A stretch of 64,000 nt of DNA, taken from IMG/VR virus record IMGVR_UViG_3300020455_000006, positions 58,670 to 122,669 of that record. One strand, written 5' to 3'. The first letter of the stretch is position 1. Each line of letters opens with the position of its first letter. Shown piece by piece: positions 1-49,789 of the stretch. The stretch comes from a virus. Both the position numbers and the translations under genes were made by a program. Under the pieces are notes generated by a model, which was not told the DNA's origin, ran no database searches, and was given only the letters and a program-made list of their open reading frames with translations.

Positions 1-224
1 GAGGGATTGACTCTTAGGGAGTGCATACATGGCAAGGGTTCTCAGACACCCGCCCAAGTTCAACCAGTTTGGTATAAGGGAACATATAATGAATATGCTA
101 ACAGTATAAAAACTTATATCCAAGAAATGCTGTAACAAAACCACATATAAAATTGGCACAAGACACACCCTAAAATCAAACTTTCGTGATTATAATGAAG
201 GAGTCCAAACAAATAGTAACAACT

Positions 225-491
225 ATGCCAACTAAGTCTATCGCTAAAGTAACAACAACTAAAGCAAAGACTAGGACTAGAGTAACAACAACAAAACTCA
301 AAAGACCTGCTAAGAGTGTACTTACTCTAAATCACTACGTTAGAGACTATCAGTCAAGAGTAAAAATTCACAATTATGAGTTTCAACAATTCTTGAATGA
401 TTGTAAAAAAGGTATTCAATTAGTAAGACAATCTTCAGAGAATGTTTATAACTATGCTCTACAATCTTACAAAACACACTTCAATGTGTGA
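225..491 (+). CDS. Hypothetical early protein, basic Thr/Lys-rich N-terminus
   Basis: ORF 186..491; ATG at 225 (MPTKSIAK) preferred, downstream of TATAAT at 191-196; followed by a terminator. Confidence 0.6.
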   Translation: MPTKSIAKVTTTKAKTRTRVTTTKLKRPAKSVLTLNHYVRDYQSRVKIHNYEFQQFLNDCKKGIQLVRQSSENVYNYALQSYKTHFNV

Positions 492-510
492 CAGTCAATG
501 AATTGACACA

Positions 511-532
511 AGCACCCTAGAGGTGCTTTTTT
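511..532 (+). terminator. Intrinsic terminator
   Basis: AGCACC-ctaga-GGTGCT hairpin followed by a T run. Confidence 0.65.
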
Positions 533-575
533 CTTATCGTAAGAAAACCAGTTGAGATAGTGTCACAAGTACCCC

Positions 576-604
576 TTCACAAATCCCATTATTCAGACTA
601 TACT
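576..604 (+). promoter_or_regulatory. sigma70-type early promoter
   Basis: TTCACA-N17-TATACT, 26 nt upstream of the ATG at 631. Confidence 0.75.
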
Positions 605-630
605 ATTAGTATAGCAATCAATCAAACATC

Positions 631-1002
631 ATGAGAAAAATCGAAAGACAAATGAACTTCGCTCTATCCAATAAGGGCAATTTCTCAAGTTCAAACACTT
701 CTGTTTCTTACCACCCTTCAGAGAATCTTTCGGAAGTGAGACTACATGGCAATCTAATTGCATGGTTAGACCACACTAAGCAAGTATTAGCACTTAGTTC
801 GGCAGGGTGGCATACTAACACCACTAAGTCTAGACTAAATGCTTTACTCTTTGAGTTCAATACTGGCATTAGTGTATTTCAGAAAAACTGGGATTGGTTC
901 GTCTCTGACTTCTCAGGTAAGAAAAAAGTTGACTTTTATGATGGAATTTTAGTCACTAAGGAGGGATTTTCGTCAATTCACTCACACCCTGCTGTAGCAT
1001 AA
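631..1002 (+). CDS. Conserved phage hypothetical early protein
   Basis: 123 aa with LHGNLIA and GWxTxTTKSRLNALL motifs, recalled from cyanophage early proteins; has its own promoter. Confidence 0.8.
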   Translation: MRKIERQMNFALSNKGNFSSSNTSVSYHPSENLSEVRLHGNLIAWLDHTKQVLALSSAGWHTNTTKSRLNALLFEFNTGISVFQKNWDWFVSDFSGKKKVDFYDGILVTKEGFSSIHSHPAVA

Positions 1003-1344
1003 GTTACAGCAGTTCGTCCATTTGATACGCAATTACTTCGTTATGCAACTATTTTCGTCTAAAGTTCGTCTAAAATCCCTTGATATGACTTCGTTTTCGT
1101 TATCAAGAGATATATACAAAAGTTTACATGAAATGAACAGTTATGATGCTACAATTATGGGTATCAACTGTTACACGCAAAAGAATAAAAATGTTTCAAA
1201 AAACATTTATTGACTCTTTATAGATGTTACAAAGGTGTGTATCATTTGTTCTCTTAGCGAGCATGGCATAAAAGTCAAGCAAATACTAGGAGACCCACAC
1301 AGAATCCCCGATACAGGCACTTGTAACATATTATACATGGGACT

Positions 1345-1368
1345 TGTGCCAATATATGAACTGGCACA
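1345..1368. promoter_or_regulatory. TGTGCCA-N10-TGGCACA inverted repeat (early-region motif)
   Basis: Perfect 7-bp arms; degenerate copies at 141-160, 487-510, 548-567 and 2320-2339. Confidence 0.65.
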
Positions 1369-1848
1369 GCAAGACACAATGATACCACAGCGAGTATCAT
1401 TTGATACACGAACAGATGCTACAATATGCTGTAACATTTGATACAGGCACTATTGTAACATATTATACCTGGTACTGTACCAGATTTACATGACCTTGTA
1501 AAGTACCAATGATACATTCTGACGTATCAAATGTTACATGGTATAATATTATACATGAACATGTTCAGGTATCATTTGATACAACTTCATGTTATTACAA
1601 ATAATTATAAGTTGGCAGGGGGAGTGGCGAATATTTTCTAAAGTCCTACCCCAGACTTGCTTACCCTAATTTTAACAAATTTCTCAGGGCAGTACAAGTA
1701 CATTTGATACATGTACATGTTCATGTAACATATGATACATCTGGTTTAGATTCTACTTCCATTCTAGCAAAGATTTTTTTTATATGCAATGTACATTTTA
1801 TACAATGTAAAATATGATACATGGGCGGTTTCCCGTACCTTTTACAGG

Positions 1849-1877
1849 TGGCAATCTCTGGAAGGACATGTTAAGAT
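1849..1877 (+). promoter_or_regulatory. Putative sigma70 promoter with extended -10
   Basis: TGGCAA-N17-TAAGAT with TGn before the -10, upstream of the ATG at 1906. Confidence 0.5.
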
Positions 1878-1905
1878 TAGATTGTTCGACAGCAAATCTT
1901 TTATT

Positions 1906-2274
1906 ATGTTCCCTTCAACAATCCTTGAGACAATCAAAGCAAACACACCTGCACCTGCTAGATCATTCAACATCAACACTAATAGCAGAGACCTTGACTT
2001 TCAGGTATCAACTAAGCAAATCCTCCAGATACTTAGAAAGAATCCTCAAGGTATGACACTTACAGAAATTGCACAAGCAGTTGACCCTAACTGGCAAACA
2101 ATGAACTGTAAGAGAATGTTCAAACAGGCGATTGATCCTCTATGCCTTCGTGATGATGTTCGTTTCACTACGTCCAAATCTGGCAAGCGTGTAAAGTACT
2201 TCCCAACTCGTGTTTCTAAGCGTTGGTTAGTCAAAGAACTTTTCAACACATTTGCACAGGCGAAAAATTCATAA
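1906..2274 (+). CDS. Putative winged helix-turn-helix DNA-binding protein
   Basis: ILQILRKNPQGMTLTEIAQAV helix pattern, then a basic wing-like segment (VRFTTSKSGKRVKYF); start moved from 1789 to the ATG at 1906. Confidence 0.65.
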   Translation: MFPSTILETIKANTPAPARSFNINTNSRDLDFQVSTKQILQILRKNPQGMTLTEIAQAVDPNWQTMNCKRMFKQAIDPLCLRDDVRFTTSKSGKRVKYFPTRVSKRWLVKELFNTFAQAKNS

Positions 2275-2412
2275 TCGCTAGACTCTGGCAATGCCAATAA
2301 GTCCAGAGTCGAACACAAACCAGTTGACAGAGTGTCAAGTGATCTTGTTACCTCACACTATATCATTTGTTACTTGACACCTTGTCAACACCCCTGTATC
2401 ATTTGATACACG

Positions 2413-2442
2413 AAATCGCAGGTAAATCTTGCGATTTTTTTT
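2413..2442 (+). terminator. Intrinsic terminator at a convergent junction
   Basis: AAATCGCA...TGCGATTT hairpin plus T tract. Confidence 0.6.
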
Positions 2443-2541
2443 ATATTGATGGGGGCGGTGCGTTATTAAAAAGTACCTTCTATCTAACCTACAAACGTTT
2501 CCCAACGCCCTCGGTATCATAAATCAAAATTTTTTTCCCTA

Positions 2542-3285
2542 TTAAAAAACGCCCCTTAGATTTTTTTCCAGTATATCTGCTATCATAACATGACCCTTCT
2601 TGGTAGGATGTTTAGAGAGTGGGTTGAGTAAACCTTTCATCTCTCCAAGTTTGATTCTTCTTTCAGTCTTGATATGAGTATTGACAAATGCTTCATCTGT
2701 AGGTTGCCATGTTGAATAATGATATGATTGATCTTCAACAGTCATACGAGTCAATAGGTCTACTGGTAGAAGTCTTGGTATTTCTAAAGGATACTTGTGA
2801 GTATTGAATGTATCAAACCAATAGTTCTGTATACCTAACGATTCAAAGAAGAGATTCCAATGAAGCATTTGATGAGCAAGTAACTTCACTTCATGTTCAT
2901 GATTGTAGAAGTTCTCGGCATACTCTATTGCATTGAATACTTTGTAATTAGTATTATAAGATACGTTCTTGATTCTTTCTTCTTTTGCAAGATAGAGTTC
3001 ATTACGGGCAGTTGAAGTGATTCCCCATAATACGATAGTTTTTTCTTTTGGACGCTCTGTGAAATACTTACATGCTAATCGAAATTGTTTCTGATTACTT
3101 GACCCACCTTTTGAAATATTGATGTTATTATATCCATGTCTTTGTGATAAGATAGCACGAAAAGAATACTTGTTAGCATTCTCTTCACTCTTATAGTGTT
3201 TATAATATTGATCTAGATTCTCACCTTTTTCGTATCCACATCCGATACCCCAAGTCCAAGAACATCCAAGTGTTATAAGATTCAT
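2542..3285 (-). CDS. SGNH/GDSL-like hydrolase or acyltransferase family protein
   Basis: N-terminal LGCSWTWG, NISKGGSSN, C-terminal HPTKKGH. Confidence 0.75.
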   Translation of the reverse strand: MNLITLGCSWTWGIGCGYEKGENLDQYYKHYKSEENANKYSFRAILSQRHGYNNINISKGGSSNQKQFRLACKYFTERPKEKTIVLWGITSTARNELYLAKEERIKNVSYNTNYKVFNAIEYAENFYNHEHEVKLLAHQMLHWNLFFESLGIQNYWFDTFNTHKYPLEIPRLLPVDLLTRMTVEDQSYHYSTWQPTDEAFVNTHIKTERRIKLGEMKGLLNPLSKHPTKKGHVMIADILEKNLRGVF

Positions 3286-3371
3286 ACGTGTGGATCATAC
3301 TTACGCATTATGTAGAGAGCGATAAGAGCACCAACACTAGATGCACCAAGAACAATTAGAAATAAAGGCAT
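3282..3371 (-). CDS. Small single-TM membrane peptide (29 aa)
   Basis: Manual translation MPLFLIVLGASSVGALIALYIMRKYDPHV*; stop overlaps the next start (ATGA). Confidence 0.6.
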   Translation of the reverse strand: MPLFLIVLGASSVGALIALYIMRKYDPHV

Positions 3372-3435
3372 AACATTTGAAAAATAATAGGGTTCCTCTT
3401 ATACACAACGTCCCATCAATATAAGAGGAAAAAAA

Positions 3436-3603
3436 GGGAGGTTGGATTCCTGTATACCAACAAAGAACGGGCATTACTACAGTAGTAAGTTTTACGTCCT
3501 TGCCTGAGACCCGACTGGTAAGTCGATTCACCTTTCGGTGCAGCACCACCTGTGTCTCATCACCTTATCCAGCGTTTGCCAGAAAGATTATTCAGTCACT
3601 CCC
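3436..3603 (-). ncRNA. manA: Structured ncRNA, probably the manA RNA motif
   Basis: Closing helix GGGAG/CTCCC; internal helices TGAGAC/GTCTCA, CACC-GAAA-GGTG, TCGAC/GTCGG, AAGGACG/CGTTCTT, TTACTA/TAGTAA, GTTGG/CCAAC; ACACAGGTGGTGCTG core recalled from cyanophage manA RNAs, so the family name is from memory. Confidence 0.7.
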
Positions 3604-3626
3604 GACGTAACCGTCGTTACTCTATT

Positions 3627-3655
3627 ATTATAGTACATGTGAATGAAGTTGTCAA
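3627..3655 (-). promoter_or_regulatory. Perfect consensus sigma70 promoter driving the ncRNA
   Basis: Minus strand reads TTGACA-N17-TATAAT. Confidence 0.9.
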
Positions 3656-4146
3656 CAAATATCCTGACCGAAAAAAGTATATTCATCAACCATCTCCTGT
3701 ATTGTTTTTCGACAATATCTACAGTCAACTTTCTGAGAACCCCAACCATTCTCTCCTAGCACACGGTTCTTACGATACTTGTTCCATAACTCTTTACGTT
3801 TACTGATTTCCATTTCTCTGTAGGATTCAAGGTCGATACAGTACACATGATTATCTTCATCATGGACAAAGTTACCTATAGTGTAATCAGTAAAAGTCCA
3901 AGGAGATTCTCTTTCTACAAGTTCACGGTATAATATATGAGAGAACTTATGCCCTACAAACTTACCTTTGATATACTCTGATGTTGTAATTATGGATAAA
4001 CCTTCGGTAGTATAAGAGAAGGATGGTACACGTATTTCTGTAAATGTATCCTTATCTTTCTGTAATTGATTCAAACGAGTAACTATTCTATCAAATTTCT
4101 CTTGAGACTCATAGGTCTTATGTTTTATAATTGTAAATTTGTTCAT
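3652..4146 (-). CDS. Small protein-kinase-like (APH/LPS-kinase-type) protein
   Basis: D-x4-N catalytic-loop-like FTDYTIGNF followed by YCIDLE; C-terminal CxxC. Confidence 0.45.
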   Translation of the reverse strand: MNKFTIIKHKTYESQEKFDRIVTRLNQLQKDKDTFTEIRVPSFSYTTEGLSIITTSEYIKGKFVGHKFSHILYRELVERESPWTFTDYTIGNFVHDEDNHVYCIDLESYREMEISKRKELWNKYRKNRVLGENGWGSQKVDCRYCRKTIQEMVDEYTFFGQDIC

Positions 4147-5045
4147 AGATGTTTTCTACCGAATGCATAGAGTTCTTCAGTCAATGGTTCAATTTCTGTG
4201 TTTTGGTCTTTGAGTCCTTCTATGTCTTTGTTCTTTGACATGTACTGATTAGGATAAAGGTTTTCTGGTTTGATTTCGTAATCTAGAAATTCAGACAACC
4301 TATCAAAAGATTCGTTATGGTACGATGAGTTCCAAAATTTCTCCATTTCTACTACCAAAACATTTTTATTACCATAACTCTTTCTAAATTTTTCGATGTT
4401 ATCTTCGTAGTAACAATTTGTACTAAATCTTGATCTTTCGCAACACCAGCGAAATAATTTTTGTTGCTTCTTAGTACGTATGTAATGATTATACATCAGA
4501 TCATCATTTTTGACAAACCTCTGCAGTTTTTTTCTTTTATGTTCATTGGAATGGTACATGGTAATTAGACCGCCCATTTCCTGATAGTAACGAAAGACAG
4601 GATCTGCAAGTAGTATTGTTACCCTCACATCAAAGTGGGATTTCAAAGCGTTTGCATGTGCTGTCAGAAATTCTTCTGGTAAACTGATGTTATAGTTGGA
4701 GAAATCACATACTGCATGATACTCAGGAAACATATCTCTCATATACTGCATATGATAGATGTATTTGTCGAATGAGTGCTCTGGTTCTAGCAGTGCCTGA
4801 TAGTGGTCTTTATTGTATTCTGCAGTAATCTCTGGTAGTTCTCCTGTACGAAAATCAGGTCGTCTCTCTGTATATCGTTCAATCATCCAGTTCGTAAAAT
4901 CTCTCTGGTTGGTATGCATCATATGCAGGTAATGAAACTCTTTCTTATAACCTGCATGGCAATACTTAGCATTACGAAGAGTGTAGTAGAAAGGAGTTGT
5001 ACCAGCATAAGGTGTGCCTGGATTCAGTAGAAGTTTAGGTTTCAT
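4143..5045 (-). CDS. Sulfotransferase-fold protein (paralog 3)
   Basis: PGTPYAGTT, KEFHY, DFSNYN, ADPxxR; start at MKPKLL (5045) is coupled to the upstream stop. Confidence 0.7.
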   Translation of the reverse strand: MKPKLLLNPGTPYAGTTPFYYTLRNAKYCHAGYKKEFHYLHMMHTNQRDFTNWMIERYTERRPDFRTGELPEITAEYNKDHYQALLEPEHSFDKYIYHMQYMRDMFPEYHAVCDFSNYNISLPEEFLTAHANALKSHFDVRVTILLADPVFRYYQEMGGLITMYHSNEHKRKKLQRFVKNDDLMYNHYIRTKKQQKLFRWCCERSRFSTNCYYEDNIEKFRKSYGNKNVLVVEMEKFWNSSYHNESFDRLSEFLDYEIKPENLYPNQYMSKNKDIEGLKDQNTEIEPLTEELYAFGRKHL

Positions 5046-5995
5046 CGATTCCATTCCTCTGGTATACTCCCGTAGCATTTCTCCCAGTCTGTATATACAA
5101 AACCCAGATACTGTTTCGACCATTCGTATAACTCAGGGGTTATGTCCTCAAAGTCACTTCCCCATTGGTCTTTCAAAGCTTCATAGTGTGGTGCTTTTGT
5201 TCCTAAGTCAGGCACATAGACATTCTCATGTATCTTTGTAATCTCATAGTCTAAGAATTTTGAAAGTCTCTCACATTGTTCTGCTTGTCTCTCTGGGTTC
5301 CAAAACTGCTCCATAATAATCGGCAAGACTCTCTCTTGACCGAAAACTCTCACAAACTTCTGAATGTTCTGTGTATAGTATGCAGGTGGGAAGATTGGAT
5401 ATGATGAGATGTAGTGACGAAAGAGTTTGATATGCTGCTTTGACTTAACATAGGCATTGTGCTTGATCTTATGAGAATCAAAACCTGATAGTATAAGTTT
5501 ACCCTGTATAAACTTACCAACCTCAGAGAAATAGCGACGAATCGGGTCACGAAACTGAAACGTGACTCTGACGTTGAAGTGTTGAGACATTTTATCTCTC
5601 CACTCGATTAGAAACTCTTCTGGTAGTTCAAAGTTATAGTTTGTGAAGTCTGCTACTGCCTGATAGGTGCCTTTTGTCTTTTCATGTAGTCTAAGGTAAT
5701 AATCAACGTACTTAGTAATAGTATAAGGTGGTTTGAGTAATTCTTCAGTCTCTTCTCTTGATACAAACTCTCGATTGTCAACCATTTTGATCCAATCTTC
5801 ATCAGGACGTGATCTCTGTCGTAAAGTTTTCTTGTAGATTGATATATCTTGTTCTGATCTTTTACCCATCAGTTTGAGATAACCCATCTCCTTCTGATGC
5901 CCACTATGACAGTACTTTTGTTGTTTAGCGAGAGTAAAGTAAAAAGGAGTGGTTGCAGACCACCCAGTCCCTGCATTTAATAAGAAATCAATCAT
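5042..5995 (-). CDS. Sulfotransferase-fold protein (paralog 2)
   Basis: GTGWSATT, KEMGY, 3'-PB-like RDPIRRYFS. Confidence 0.75.
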   Translation of the reverse strand: MIDFLLNAGTGWSATTPFYFTLAKQQKYCHSGHQKEMGYLKLMGKRSEQDISIYKKTLRQRSRPDEDWIKMVDNREFVSREETEELLKPPYTITKYVDYYLRLHEKTKGTYQAVADFTNYNFELPEEFLIEWRDKMSQHFNVRVTFQFRDPIRRYFSEVGKFIQGKLILSGFDSHKIKHNAYVKSKQHIKLFRHYISSYPIFPPAYYTQNIQKFVRVFGQERVLPIIMEQFWNPERQAEQCERLSKFLDYEITKIHENVYVPDLGTKAPHYEALKDQWGSDFEDITPELYEWSKQYLGFVYTDWEKCYGSIPEEWNR

Positions 5996-6938
5996 AGTTC
6001 CATGATTCTGGCATTGGAAGAACCCTCAACCATTCATCGTAAAAGTGTTTCATAGGTTCTTTTGCATATTCAATGAGTTCAGGTGTCAGTGGTTCCTTGA
6101 GACTATTAGATTGATCTAAAAGATATGTATCGTCTGCATGTGACAATGGCCAAAAGAAATTTGGATGTATTTTATCTATTCGATACCCTATAAATTCTGA
6201 GAGTCTCTCTTTTTGCTCTTTCTCTCTCTTTGGTTCCCAAAACTCTTCCATGATAATAGGTAATACATTATCTTTACCAAATGCCTTGCAATATTTGTTG
6301 TAAGTTTGTGCATAGTCTACATTATGTCTGTCAAAGTCAGTGCTCTCAAATTTTCTTCTGTCAATATAACTCTTGAATAGTTTTTGTTGTTTTCCAAGAG
6401 CAGCAAAGGCACCATACTGCTTCCTACCACATAATCTACCGACTTCATAGTAGAAACGAGTGATGGGATCTGCAAATGTAATTGTTACTTTGACATCAAA
6501 GTGCTCAAGTAACTTCTCAGCGATAGAACATAAGAATACATCAGGTATGTCAACATTATAAGTAGAGAAATCACCAACAGCAGCATAGTCACCCTTATAC
6601 TCATCAAGAAGGAGAAAATACTCCACATACTTCTCAATACTAAATGGTGAACTATAAAAATATTGAAGATATCCATCATCAAATACCTTTTTACGTAATT
6701 CTTCTGCTAATGGTGGAGGATGTATCTTAGCAGTGTGTGAATTATCATATGCTGTATCTAAATTCTTATTTCTATACCTATTGAAGTCGAATGTGTTCTC
6801 TCTTGCTGCTAATGCCCAATATTGTATTTCTTTAGTAACACCTGTTGTCACATAGCGATTTAGATGTTGTAAAGTATAATAAAAAGGTGTGGTTGCTGAC
6901 CATCCAACACCAGGATGCATGTGGAATTTTTGTTTCAT
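5988..6938 (-). CDS. Sulfotransferase-fold protein (paralog 1)
   Basis: GVGWSATT, KEIQY, GDFSTYN, ADPITRF; colinear with its two neighbours. Confidence 0.7.
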   Translation of the reverse strand: MKQKFHMHPGVGWSATTPFYYTLQHLNRYVTTGVTKEIQYWALAARENTFDFNRYRNKNLDTAYDNSHTAKIHPPPLAEELRKKVFDDGYLQYFYSSPFSIEKYVEYFLLLDEYKGDYAAVGDFSTYNVDIPDVFLCSIAEKLLEHFDVKVTITFADPITRFYYEVGRLCGRKQYGAFAALGKQQKLFKSYIDRRKFESTDFDRHNVDYAQTYNKYCKAFGKDNVLPIIMEEFWEPKREKEQKERLSEFIGYRIDKIHPNFFWPLSHADDTYLLDQSNSLKEPLTPELIEYAKEPMKHFYDEWLRVLPMPESWNYD

Positions 6939-6945
6939 CTAAATA
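6939..6945 (+). promoter_or_regulatory. T4-type late promoter
   Basis: CTAAATA upstream of the plus-strand enzyme operon. Confidence 0.55.
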
Positions 6946-6990
6946 ACGGTGTTACCGTTTGAGGTGGCCCTTACTTATTACTTATAAGGG

Positions 6991-7626
6991 ATGTTATTAT
7001 TTGCAGGTGATCAGCACTCATTGGGGTATCCCCTTTACATAACTGGGGAGGTGAGTGTAATATGTGAGAATAGTATATCAAATGATAGGTTAGTCAAGAA
7101 AGTAATAGAGGAGTGTGAAGAAGAGGAGTTTGATTATGTTGTAGTGCAATGGGGTTCATGGGGAAGAGTTGAGATATATCAAGATGGTTGGAAACAACTC
7201 AAACCGACACAGTATTTGAAGAGACAGGAAGAATTACTTCGGGAAGGAAAGTTTATATTGAACCACCAGGATAATTACGAACTCTCTAAACTATGGTATA
7301 CCAAGATAGACAGTGAGCACTTACGTTCAAGTAATCTATGGAGGAACGTTTACTTACTTGAGAACTATCTATCAGGAAGAAATATAAAACATTACTTTTG
7401 GATGGTCAAGAATAACTATGAACCAGTAGGAACTTATATTGAAGATGATAGTCATATCAAGCAGAATCATCAAACTGATACAGGAAATATATTTCGAGAT
7501 CTAAGTCGTTGGAAGAATATGGAGACAGATGTGAGTTTGATTGGTAAAGATATGAAGAGAGAAGATCTTACCGATCATTCTATCTTAGCAAATAAGATAA
7601 TAGAGGTGACAAATGATTTTAGTTAA
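6991..7626 (+). CDS. Degenerate SGNH-like protein
   Basis: LFAGDQHSLG (no nucleophile Ser after GD), SNDR, VVVQWGSWGRVE. Confidence 0.6.
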   Translation: MLLFAGDQHSLGYPLYITGEVSVICENSISNDRLVKKVIEECEEEEFDYVVVQWGSWGRVEIYQDGWKQLKPTQYLKRQEELLREGKFILNHQDNYELSKLWYTKIDSEHLRSSNLWRNVYLLENYLSGRNIKHYFWMVKNNYEPVGTYIEDDSHIKQNHQTDTGNIFRDLSRWKNMETDVSLIGKDMKREDLTDHSILANKIIEVTNDFS

Positions 7627-8302
7627 TGGTGATTCAGTGACATGGGGTTGTGAGTTGACTGAAAATGATGATGATATGGACTACATCAATAAACATCGTT
7701 ACTCGTCTCTCCTCTCTGCAACTAACATCTCTAAAATATCTAATACAAACGAGCGAATTGTTTGGGACACCATTGAGTATATTGAAAAATATGGTAAACC
7801 AGACTTTGTTATTATACAGTGGGCGAATACTGCTCGCTTTGAATGGTATTCAAAACAGAAGAAAAAATGGATAAAGATCTCTGCAAGACATGTCAGTACT
7901 GATTTCAAGGATTGTCATATAAAAGATAGTGATATGAGAGATGCAGGTTATGCGTGGTTCAGAGATGTTGAGACTAAAGAGTTCAGAGAGATGAATTTTT
8001 GGAGACATGTGCATCATTTAGAGTCATATTTGGGCGACATACCTCATTATTTCTATCTTGCAAAGGGAAATGCTTCTTACAGATCGTCAAAATTGAAGAA
8101 AATGAGAAAAAAATGTTTTTTTGAGGAGCATTCAAAGTGGAAAAACATGCTAGACTATACAGAGATAGTTGGAGACAAAGAAAAAAACCCAGATAACTAC
8201 TGTCAGGGGCAAAAATCTTGGATCGGAAGAGCATATGGACAGCATCTTTCGGAAAAAGGACATCAAATCATGGCAAATTTTCTAAATGAACATATTATTT
8301 AA
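7613..8302 (+). CDS. SGNH-like protein
   Basis: VNGDSVTWG, IIQW..RFE, HLSEKGH. Confidence 0.75.
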   Translation: MILVNGDSVTWGCELTENDDDMDYINKHRYSSLLSATNISKISNTNERIVWDTIEYIEKYGKPDFVIIQWANTARFEWYSKQKKKWIKISARHVSTDFKDCHIKDSDMRDAGYAWFRDVETKEFREMNFWRHVHHLESYLGDIPHYFYLAKGNASYRSSKLKKMRKKCFFEEHSKWKNMLDYTEIVGDKEKNPDNYCQGQKSWIGRAYGQHLSEKGHQIMANFLNEHII

Positions 8303-48934: not shown

Positions 48935-49789
48935 ATGCCAAGCACTAGACAGGAATTAATTGAATATGGCAAGAGGCAGTTGGGTCATCCTGTCTTGGAG
49001 ATCAACATAGCCGATGAACAAATTGAAGATAATTTAGATGATACTATAATCTTTTATCAAGATCGTCATATGGATGGTGTTGAAAAGATGTATCTAAAGC
49101 ATAAGATAACTAAAGATTTTACTGATACTATACAAGCAACCAGTTCTCCAACTCGTAAAGAGGCAGCAACTGGTCTTACTACAACCACATCTCCGAGTGT
49201 AAACATAACAGGTGTTGGTACTACCACGTTTTCATTTGAAGAGACACAGAACTTTATACAAGTGCCAGATGCTGTGATAGGTATTGAGAAGGTATGGAAA
49301 GTAGATAGTCGTGCGATAGCATCTAACATGTTCAACATAACATATCAGTTATTTTTGAACGAGATATACTACTTTAGTTCTATGGAGTTGTTGAGTTACA
49401 CTCAGACAAAGAGATACCTTGAAGATATAGATTTTATATTACACCCAGATAAACAGATAAGATTCAACAGAAGACAAAATAGATTATACATTGATAGTGA
49501 TTATAGTAGTATGAAGGAGGATGATTATCTTATCATAGAGTGCTATAGAGTATTAGATCCTAATGATTACCCAAAGGTTTACAACGACAGGTGGATTAAA
49601 AATTACTTTACTGCAAAACTCAAAAAACAGTGGGGTCAAAATCTTATAAAATTCCAAGGAGTCAAATTGCCAGGTGGTGTAGAACTAAATGGTAGACAGA
49701 TATACGAAGACGGGGTTGCTGAAATACAAGCACTTGAAGATAAGATGACAACCGAGTACGAATTACCACCACTTGACTTTATAGGATAA
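48935..49789 (+). CDS. gp13: Neck protein gp13
   Basis: RQLGHPVLEIN, KQWGQNLIKF.GVKLPGG..LNG, PPLDFIG. Confidence 0.95.
   Translation: MPSTRQELIEYGKRQLGHPVLEINIADEQIEDNLDDTIIFYQDRHMDGVEKMYLKHKITKDFTDTIQATSSPTRKEAATGLTTTTSPSVNITGVGTTTFSFEETQNFIQVPDAVIGIEKVWKVDSRAIASNMFNITYQLFLNEIYYFSSMELLSYTQTKRYLEDIDFILHPDKQIRFNRRQNRLYIDSDYSSMKEDDYLIIECYRVLDPNDYPKVYNDRWIKNYFTAKLKKQWGQNLIKFQGVKLPGGVELNGRQIYEDGVAEIQALEDKMTTEYELPPLDFIG

Follow-up and report, generated by a model that had tools for sequence, protein, structure and literature searches.

A predicted winged-helix gene and an array of NtcA-type palindromes form a conserved cassette in uncultured T4-like cyanophages

Which protein reads a cluster of near-perfect palindromes that surrounds one small gene in a marine cyanophage genome? 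The cluster lies in a 64,000-nt stretch of DNA (hereafter the window; bases 58,670–122,669 of the 122,669-nt IMG/VR record IMGVR_UViG_3300020455_000006, with an estimated completeness of 66%) from an uncultured T4-like cyanomyophage of the ocean. We find that gene 1906–2274 (window coordinates are used throughout), which encodes a basic protein predicted to adopt a winged-helix fold, and the palindromes around it form a conserved accessory cassette that is inherited together. The cassette is about 1.5 kb long, has this gene as its one protein gene and carries 6–12 copies of TGTATCA-N2-TGATACA, which flank the gene on both sides. These boxes contain GTA-N8-TAC (N8 boxes), the operator core of NtcA, the 2-oxoglutarate-sensing regulator of the cyanobacterial host. 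In the reading that we favour, to which we give a probability of roughly 45%, host NtcA reads the N8 boxes and a dimer of the winged-helix protein is the cassette's own regulator, for which a gene-linked site one base shorter (the N7 site) is the most consistent candidate operator.

The open reading frame (ORF) at 1906–2274 is a real gene, as follows from the excess of substitutions at third codon positions (17, 14 and 39 at positions 1, 2 and 3 relative to locus L007; 6, 5 and 17 relative to L014), from contigs of RNA libraries and from 284 homologues. Its start context, ATTATGTTC, is kept in an alignment of 15 loci. The RNA-library contigs, from two metatranscriptome studies, match 1898–2394 and 2002–2422 with 0 mismatches and thus extend from just 5' of the ATG through to the terminator; because RNA libraries can hold DNA, these matches support transcription of the gene without proving it. 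No RNA contig from four metatranscriptome runs fell within 1120–1847, which is not evidence that this part is silent. An initial annotation, made from the sequence, had described the ORF as basic and as the only convincing one between 1003 and 2541. Both descriptions hold: the product has an isoelectric point of 10.29, with 20 Lys and Arg residues and 9 Asp and Glu residues and a basic wing at residues 82–110, and a competing ORF at 1022–1213 was rejected as coding, with no third-position bias (4/8/8 and 3/6/6) and an in-frame stop in locus L015.

The gene is not the orphan that it was first taken for. Among 288 metagenomic candidates, 284 are homologues with E ≤ 0.01, mostly 109–113 residues long and 75–84% identical, and a representative library of 1.84 billion proteins holds 13 clusters of them at 50% identity (E ≤ 1e-3); where they are named, the name is 'hypothetical protein'. 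No Pfam model scored above threshold (the best, HTH_IclR, reached 17 bits against a cut-off of 22), and a sub-threshold match to DUF6958 recurred in 19 of 20 family members. A profile search against PDB sequences returned nothing relevant, a protein-atlas look-up gave the family's own unnamed clusters and weak leads only (MarR_2 and DUF2551), and tblastn found no match in 50,697 phage records, from which records near the window's own genome may be excluded. Judged by these comparisons, the gene represents an unannotated family, so far seen only in uncultured T4-like cyanophages.

The palindromes are concentrated around this gene. GTA-N8-TAC occurs 39 times in the window, compared with 16.5 ± 3.9 times in shuffled sequences (maximum 26), and 12 of the 39 copies lie within 994–2409. 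Motif scans agree with the first count of the boxes, which had 11 upstream of the ATG and two downstream, one near-exact and one exact (Table 1). With the 16-mer TGTATCATTTGATACA and up to three mismatches, 20 matches were obtained where 2.4 were expected; 17 of them, including the near-exact box at 2359–2374, are in 1160–2410. The strict box, GTAWMAWWTKWTAC, is present ten times in the whole 122,669-nt contig, each time at 1323–2409. Box spacing is irregular (16–160 nt), and two TTGACA-N3-TGTCAA palindromes (2323–2337 and 2374–2388) are interleaved with the downstream boxes. The logo of 175 unique boxes reads tGTA[T/A][C/A]A[W][W]T[G/T][A/T]TACa, with T at a frequency of 0.66 at position −1, A at 0.73 at +15, A6 at 0.96 and T9 at 0.89; the boxes were picked by GTA and TAC, so that only the flanks and the interior are informative. 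In sequence, the array boxes thus resemble NtcA operators in the core and in the flanking T and A.

The array accompanies the gene wherever close relatives were found. We gathered 5 viral and 37 metagenome loci, and later a further one, L182. In the 43 rows used for box density (the window and 42 loci, of which L023 and L029 duplicate L008 and L010), GTA-N8-TAC is found 180 times in 27,562 nt of the 1 kb upstream (6.5 per kb), 70 times in 9,978 nt of the 250 nt downstream (7.0 per kb) and 31 times in the 76,878 nt of remaining flank (0.40 per kb). All 43 rows have a box on at least one side of the gene. The six rows that lack an upstream box have only 2–289 nt of upstream flank; a downstream box is missing from three rows, L014, L015 and L049, whose flanks measure 443, 48 and 2 nt, respectively. 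The spacer between the upstream gene, a member of the Gp96 family, and the winged-helix gene measures 0.78–1.06 kb in all 15 loci that have both, and the number of boxes is kept across lineages despite turnover of their positions. At L182 the protein is 39% identical, with the helix 3 changes R70H and K73A, and stands in the same cassette, its boxes and non-coding elements essentially unchanged. In six cultured cyanomyophages the syntenic region holds small ORFs and no such gene, with 2, 1, 0, 1, 0 and 1 loose sites and no box of the AT-rich type; five cultured myophage genomes (966 kb) contain a single strict box between them, and four cultured Prochlorococcus podophages contain none. The linkage in relatives and the absence of both from the cultured syntenic regions make gene and array one accessory cassette, and the co-occurrence in other phages that had been put forward as a check was found. 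All loci descend from one cassette, so this linkage is one evolutionary fact and not 43 independent ones.

We then turn to the protein. AlphaFold2 gave an unusable model from the single sequence (predicted local distance difference test (pLDDT) of 43.8) and, with a 20-row alignment, a model with a pLDDT of 68.9 (70–83 in the core). In this model three helices (H1–H3; residues 36–45, 52–59 and 65–81) are followed by a β-hairpin (strands 85–89 and 96–100) and a long C-terminal helix (105–121), that is, the three-helix bundle and β-hairpin wing that define a winged helix. The top Foldseek matches in PDB are all winged-helix proteins (LmrR, MepR, AdcR, PadR and Hop2; best E = 1.1e-2) and those in BFVD are MarR-type phage winged-helix proteins (best E = 3.7e-3); no match in either database reached E ≤ 1e-3. 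Structure prediction and fold search therefore bear out the winged-helix pattern noticed in the sequence, and on the model the protein is a winged-helix protein.

Modelling also indicates that the protein probably forms a two-fold symmetric homodimer. The homodimer model scored 0.56 and the best control 0.01; among proteins of solved structure, 20 of 30 one-chain pairs and 1 of 23 single chains attain that mark. Contact agreement in the dimer runs was at least 23% and partner pLDDT at least 64. The modelled interface is formed by residues 23–37, INTNSRDLD(Y/F)QVSTK, which build an intermolecular sheet and are the most conserved stretch of the family, and by one face of helix 3, which is partly buried there. 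The protein would share its fold class and C-terminal helix with LmrR, MepR, AdcR and PadR, MarR/PadR-type proteins whose dimers bind palindromes (PMC9692554). It differs from them in the distance of the match (template modelling scores of 0.4–0.75 on partial alignments, in addition to the Foldseek E value above) and in the predicted mode of dimerization, by exchange of N-terminal strands instead of the usual helical bundle.

With a symmetric basic dimer predicted amid palindromes, two candidates for the reader of the N8 boxes have to be weighed. In the favoured reading, the boxes would be bound by the 2-oxoglutarate-activated NtcA dimer of the host, and the cassette would serve as a nitrogen-status platform or as an NtcA sink. 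Expressed from a sigma-70-type promoter of its own, the winged-helix dimer would be the cassette's private regulator and would act on the cassette through the promoter-proximal N7 site or by competing with NtcA at the N8 boxes. The match to NtcA operators is close: GTA-N8-TAC is the consensus by which NtcA sites in cyanophages have been called (PMC3037559), and the half-site TGATACA recurs as a half-site in the MED4 glnA oligonucleotide with which NtcA was titrated (PMC5767323, Table 1). A stretch within that oligonucleotide, GTTACCTTTGATACA, and the window site at 1431–1444 are alike at 12 of 14 positions, in a comparison with marine NtcA sites that comprises three glnA oligonucleotides.

Alternatively, the winged-helix dimer may itself be the cognate binder of GTA-N8-TAC, its NtcA-like sites being mimicry that lets it compete at host promoters. 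We consider this possible yet doubtful. The protein is basic and its dimer model symmetric, boxes flank the gene on both sides in every close family locus (apart from the rows listed above), and all ten strict boxes of the contig are local to the gene. Adjacent boxes are also phased (R = 0.59 at a period of 10.5 bp, mean offset 0.56 turn), although the 107 unique pairs share descent and are not independent, which inflates the phasing p-value. The same dimer is hard to reconcile, however, with boxes that stay unchanged at 39% protein identity while basic residues of helix 3 are altered; constant boxes beside so divergent a protein are more easily explained by a conserved host factor than by a fast-evolving phage protein. 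An exact fit to the consensus of another protein is unlikely by chance, helix 3 is partly buried in the dimer model, and the co-occurrence of gene and boxes came about through descent of one cassette and not through many independent events.

Two further observations were counted in favour of NtcA as the N8 reader. The first is that the same box occurs in small groups in other marine phage contigs that have no homologue (L108 and others), these contigs being fragments, 17–55% complete. An exact 16-mer scan of viral contigs gave at least 116 stretches, mostly single chance matches; among the matches listed there was no winged-helix homologue, and the largest groups there had 4–5 sites. The second comes from a distant subfamily of the protein. 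Locus L227 encodes, at 3262–3615, a relative of 117 residues with 25% identity (hhalign probability 93.7%, E = 1.9e-7), and this subfamily adjoins the same RNA element as in the window (described below) and the 19-mer ATGTACATTTTATACAATG, which is upstream of the L227 homologue. GTA-N8-TAC is absent within −900 to +1100 nt, as observed in four loci that share the element sequence. A subfamily with the N7 site and the RNA element and with no N8 box speaks for NtcA as reader of that box and against the dimer. Homologues without the array, named at the outset as a case that would count against a joint module, thus exist only at this distance; the close family always has boxes. In L227, as in L195, L206 and L217, an N7 site precedes the gene, and a terminator, the RNA element and TGTGCCA-N10-TGGCACA follow it.

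The N7 variant is oriented, with the pattern GTACATWTKATAC and the site sequence TGTACATTTTATACA. Its density is 2.9 per kb in the arrays and 0.15 per kb outside them; the only two copies in the contig are plus-strand sites within the array, and five cultured myophages have none. Of the 36 loci in which at least 200 nt of flank are available, 29 keep the promoter-proximal copy upstream of the gene. The earlier proposal of a protein-plus-array module survives in part: the predicted fold and dimer and the joint inheritance agree with it, and the protein as reader of GTA-N8-TAC is on balance less likely, given the constancy of the boxes at 39% identity, the subfamily without the array and the match to the NtcA consensus.

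Several points weigh against host NtcA as the reader. A6 and T9 are far tighter than in published NtcA logos, in which T4 and C5 are 'somewhat conserved' in Anabaena and an A/T tendency is weak in Synechocystis (PMC3898017, PMC5714215), and a box interior tighter than these logos also favours the dimer as cognate binder; the extra constraint could reflect a second reader. Nor is the strict box an NtcA site of cyanophages in general, being almost missing from the nine cultured cyanophage genomes, which lack the gene; this near-absence is again what the cognate-binder explanation would expect. Box positions are mixed (near −42.5, near −70, over a −10-like hexamer and in a terminator loop) and hence do not fit simple class II activation. 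Finally, by analogy, a symmetric dimer encoded amid palindromes has the look expected of a cognate operator array.

The geometry also bears on what the array controls. NtcA class II promoters have a site centred near −41.5, a −10 box TAN3T and no −35 element (PMC3898017), and the box positions in the window mostly do not fit this arrangement. Box 1807–1820, the nearest to the gene's predicted promoter, ends 51 nt 5' of its −10 element, TAAGAT, close to the 50 nt first estimated, and boxes lie near −70 and −87 relative to this promoter. The suggestion that the gene is the NtcA-controlled output of the array is thus not supported by this geometry, as the predicted promoter is of the sigma-70 type and the nearest box is centred near −70 and not −41.5. 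A closer fit is seen at the RNA element, where box 1569–1582 lies 23 nt 5' of TATAAG (1606–1611), with its centre near −42.5 relative to the predicted start; another box overlaps the −10-like hexamer 2397–2402. Over all boxes, the offset of −10-like hexamers has a weak peak at 23–24 nt, in a profile dominated by neighbouring boxes. The gene's own promoter, asserted from the start, is plausible in its TGn-TAAGAT, and relatives have a better −35 in the same columns (TTGACA or TTGCAC, 17-nt spacer, TAATAT); in the window the −35 is weak (3/6), and the promoter was read by eye and missed by a consensus scan.

A gene with its own putative promoter and terminator that is present in RNA libraries might also act elsewhere. 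The protein would then have no site in the cassette and would target promoters of the host or other phage promoters, the array serving to tune its expression or that of the RNA element. A precedent exists in pMarR (PSSP7_011) of phage P-SSP7, a small winged-helix factor that acts on the host rne gene, with contacts to the host promoter and to the RNA polymerase alpha subunit (Lambrecht et al. 2022, PMC9692554). Both proteins are small (125 residues in pMarR, 122 here), dimeric (by prediction here), winged-helix and cyanophage-encoded. However, there is no detectable homology between them (hhalign probability 0.2%): pMarR belongs to the MarR family and has a host homologue (PMC9692554), whereas the window protein stays below every Pfam threshold and has an array of sites on either side of its gene. 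An outside target would also leave unexplained the downstream boxes and the retention of the N7 site even in the 25%-identity subfamily, and we hold it to be distinctly unlikely. Besides pMarR, we found no comparable cyanophage transcription factor in the published sources, as far as their available text goes.

More is asked of the cassette if the operator cluster, with its super-consensus NtcA sites multiplied by phage replication, captures host NtcA as a sink or decoy and so rewires the nitrogen-stress response, with the winged-helix dimer reading both N7 and N8 sites to gate or hand over the capture, alongside a small structured RNA whose promoter is positioned for NtcA. We regard this elaborate version as unlikely.

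The RNA in question would be the element at 1609–1676, a candidate for a new cyanophage RNA motif on comparative grounds. After an invariant 17-mer stretch comes a hairpin that covaries, its four pairs showing 2, 7, 4 and 3 double changes in 15 sequences, with a loop of the form (A)UACC(C/U)(C/U). The element is also found at L182 2773–2840, L007 3782–3849 and L013 (phage S-SSM7) 3626–3693; its covariance model gave one match in S-SSM7, at 30 bits, and Rfam gave no match to 1609–1676. Viral contigs hold the 17-mer in 59 stretches, some 40 of which are AT-rich and differ in context. In relatives, a strong promoter (TTGACA, 17-nt spacer, TATACT) reads into the element GGCAGGGGGAG; as a coding sequence this element was rejected, its start codon not being kept and its indel lengths varying.

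Such a promoter, together with direct repeats, could mark an accessory replication origin or organising centre, with TTCGTY iterons, an AT-rich stretch, a promoter-driven G-rich RNA and host-factor boxes assembled by the winged-helix protein. Counterparts would be lambda O, which has palindromic iterons, and T4 oriE. The TTCGTY repeats start directly after the stop codon of the Gp96-family gene in all loci checked (relatives' consensus TTCGTCTA): the six at 1013–1101 are among 22 plus-strand copies in the 64-kb window, and 10 other loci that were checked have four to six copies at the corresponding position, where L182 has such repeats too. The phasing of the boxes and the many contigs that end inside the array would agree with an origin. 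Yet cumulative GC skew over the contig has no inflection at the array, the cassette cannot be essential since it is missing in cultured relatives, the protein is a single domain of 110–122 residues without a part to recruit a helicase, no partner ATPase or replication gene was recognised adjoining its gene, and the RNA element is found in many other contexts. We give an origin little credence.

Initiator–iteron and centromere modules (lambda O and its origin, plasmid Rep proteins and their iterons, ParR and parC) likewise place a small DNA-binding gene within an array of its own sites. The cassette shares with them a gene embedded in an array of possible sites and direct repeats nearby. It departs from them in its palindromic boxes with irregular spacing, in the lack of any recognised partner ATPase or helicase loader, and in being dispensable in related phages.

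Some palindromes in the cassette may act at the level of RNA structure. The stem directly after the stop codon carries compensatory changes in relatives (CACTCTGG/CCAGAGTG, CATCTGG/CCAGATG and CAACTGG/CCAGTTG), and at divergent loci the terminator hairpin has the second downstream box at its top; the downstream terminator described at first is present, as a hairpin at 2412–2438 followed by a T run. The loop of the 3' untranslated region (UTR) stem varies from 10 to about 40 nt across relatives and holds a box in L047. That the boxes as a whole are RNA hairpins, or functionless repeat debris, seems scarcely tenable all the same: the outer GTA and TAC and A6/T9 are kept by sequence and not by pairing alone, with a centre of 2 nt, a 14-mer is ill suited to forming a hairpin, and box number is kept despite positional turnover.

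The inverted repeat TGTGCCA-N10-TGGCACA, a possible target named at the outset, is not a private operator of the protein. It is a common cyanomyophage repeat, with four copies in 8.1 kb of S-SSM7 and further ones in P-RSM1 and P-TIM40, all cultured and without the gene, and could be a hairpin or a general-use binding site. It is frequent in early-gene regions of cyanomyophages, with several copies per 8–14 kb locus (L013, L167 and L170). Within the cassette there is one position for an inverted repeat, which this motif fills in the window.

Returning to host NtcA as the favoured reader, the nearest published parallel is the set of predicted NtcA sites in T4-like cyanophages, 1–16 per genome (mean 8.9 in 16 genomes) and scattered (Sullivan et al. 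2010, PMC3037559). The window boxes have the same core motif and would likewise be phage DNA read by the host's 2-oxoglutarate-sensing regulator; unlike the scattered sites, 10–12 near-perfect palindromes are here gathered in about 1.1–1.4 kb around one gene. As far as our searches show, the cassette is undescribed: the available literature on NtcA sites in cyanophages and on cyanophage winged-helix proteins and palindromes contains no such cassette, although supplementary position lists (Sullivan et al. 2010; Gazitua et al. 2021) might show similar clusters. The idea that phages of Prochlorococcus and Synechococcus exploit host NtcA and the 2-oxoglutarate signal has so far been supported by scattered predicted sites only. 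The cassette, widespread in metagenomes, concentrates ideal NtcA-type operators near what would be a private winged-helix regulator and a structured RNA, and is a defined, cloneable object for the coupling of phage infection to nitrogen status. Its protein is predicted to represent a second, unannotated family of cyanophage transcription factors beside pMarR.

Table 1. Coordinates of the cassette and its elements in the window
Feature	Position	Strand	Description
Looser GTA-N8-TAC sites	994, 1161		From motif scan
Non-coding array region	1003–1905		Between the Gp96-family gene (631–1002) and the winged-helix gene
TTCGTY direct repeats, six	1013–1101	+	Starts 1013, 1037, 1054, 1065, 1090, 1096
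Strict-box core, nine GTAWMAWWTKWTAC	1323–1820		Starts 1323, 1394, 1431, 1455, 1524, 1541, 1569, 1725, 1807
Inverted repeat TGTGCCA-N10-TGGCACA	1345–1368		Generic cyanomyophage motif
Structured RNA-like element	1609–1676	+	Invariant GGCAGGGGGAGTGNCGA, then covarying hairpin with UACCCC-type loop
N7 variant site, oriented	1698–1710	+	GTACATTTGATAC; from motif scan
N7 variant site, promoter-proximal	1791–1803	+	GTACATTTTATAC; from motif scan
Putative sigma-70-type promoter	1849–1877	+	−35 TGGCAA (1849–1854), 17-nt spacer, TGn-TAAGAT (1872–1877)
Coding sequence	1906–2274	+	122 aa; basic winged-helix protein, predicted homodimer
3'-UTR stem	2281–2310	+	GACTCTGG...CCAGAGTC, directly after the stop codon
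Downstream boxes	2359–2409		Near-exact 2359–2374, exact 2396–2409
Intrinsic-terminator-like hairpin and T run	2412–2446	+	Hairpin 2412–2438

Around the cassette, gene 631–1002 belongs to Kyano_Gp96 (Pfam, E = 1.4e-35), its closest cultured relatives being proteins of Prochlorococcus and Synechococcus myophages at less than 60% identity; large structural ORFs lie 3' of the array region in the list of window ORFs; and the contig carries CP12. A search of genome contigs for CP12 gave four contigs from MAGs or draft genomes assigned to non-cyanobacterial taxa, which are probably phage DNA. Two minus-strand genes downstream of the winged-helix gene have no Pfam match, and ARAGORN found no tRNA in window positions 1–8000.

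Boxes of the same type were also seen beside other repeats. In a fragment of a Prochlorococcus T7-like podovirus (L108 8480–8960 and L097 200–680; terminase 79% identical to those of P-SSP10 and NATL2A-133), a non-coding region holds TGTATCAAATGATACA-type boxes, each after a AGTACACATGTACT palindrome, and GTAGGTATTTATAC repeats. The AGTACACATGTACT palindrome resembles cyanobacterial LexA boxes. Two AT-rich viral contigs (L129 10350–10600 and L075 1480–1680) have tandem GACTCGG repeats and a terminator followed by 2–4 boxes at a spacing of 23–37 nt; neither contig has a winged-helix homologue, and the neighbouring protein in L129 has no match in the phage collection. In L091, four boxes are in tandem with a 22-nt period, and the contig ends in the array, the gene neighbourhood lying beyond the sequence. 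Many metagenomic contigs start or stop in or beside the array (L008, L009, L011, L025, L027, L031, L045, L050, L091 and others); the array repeats may break assemblies, so that the cassette has been overlooked.

Downstream of the cassette, the non-coding stretch 2464–2539 (ATTAAAAAGTACCTTCT.TCTAACCTACAAACGTTTCCCAACG) is conserved: Synechococcus phage S-WAM1 has an unannotated intergenic counterpart (49534–49609) with 81.8% identity, and the stretch is also present in L007, L046, L047, L050 and L182. Further on, a full-length manA RNA motif occupies 3431–3621 on the minus strand (RF01745, 179.9 bits, E = 1.2e-49). It has the best RNA-contig coverage within 600–3700, with RNA-library contigs from four runs, summed word depths of up to about 4000 and several variants.

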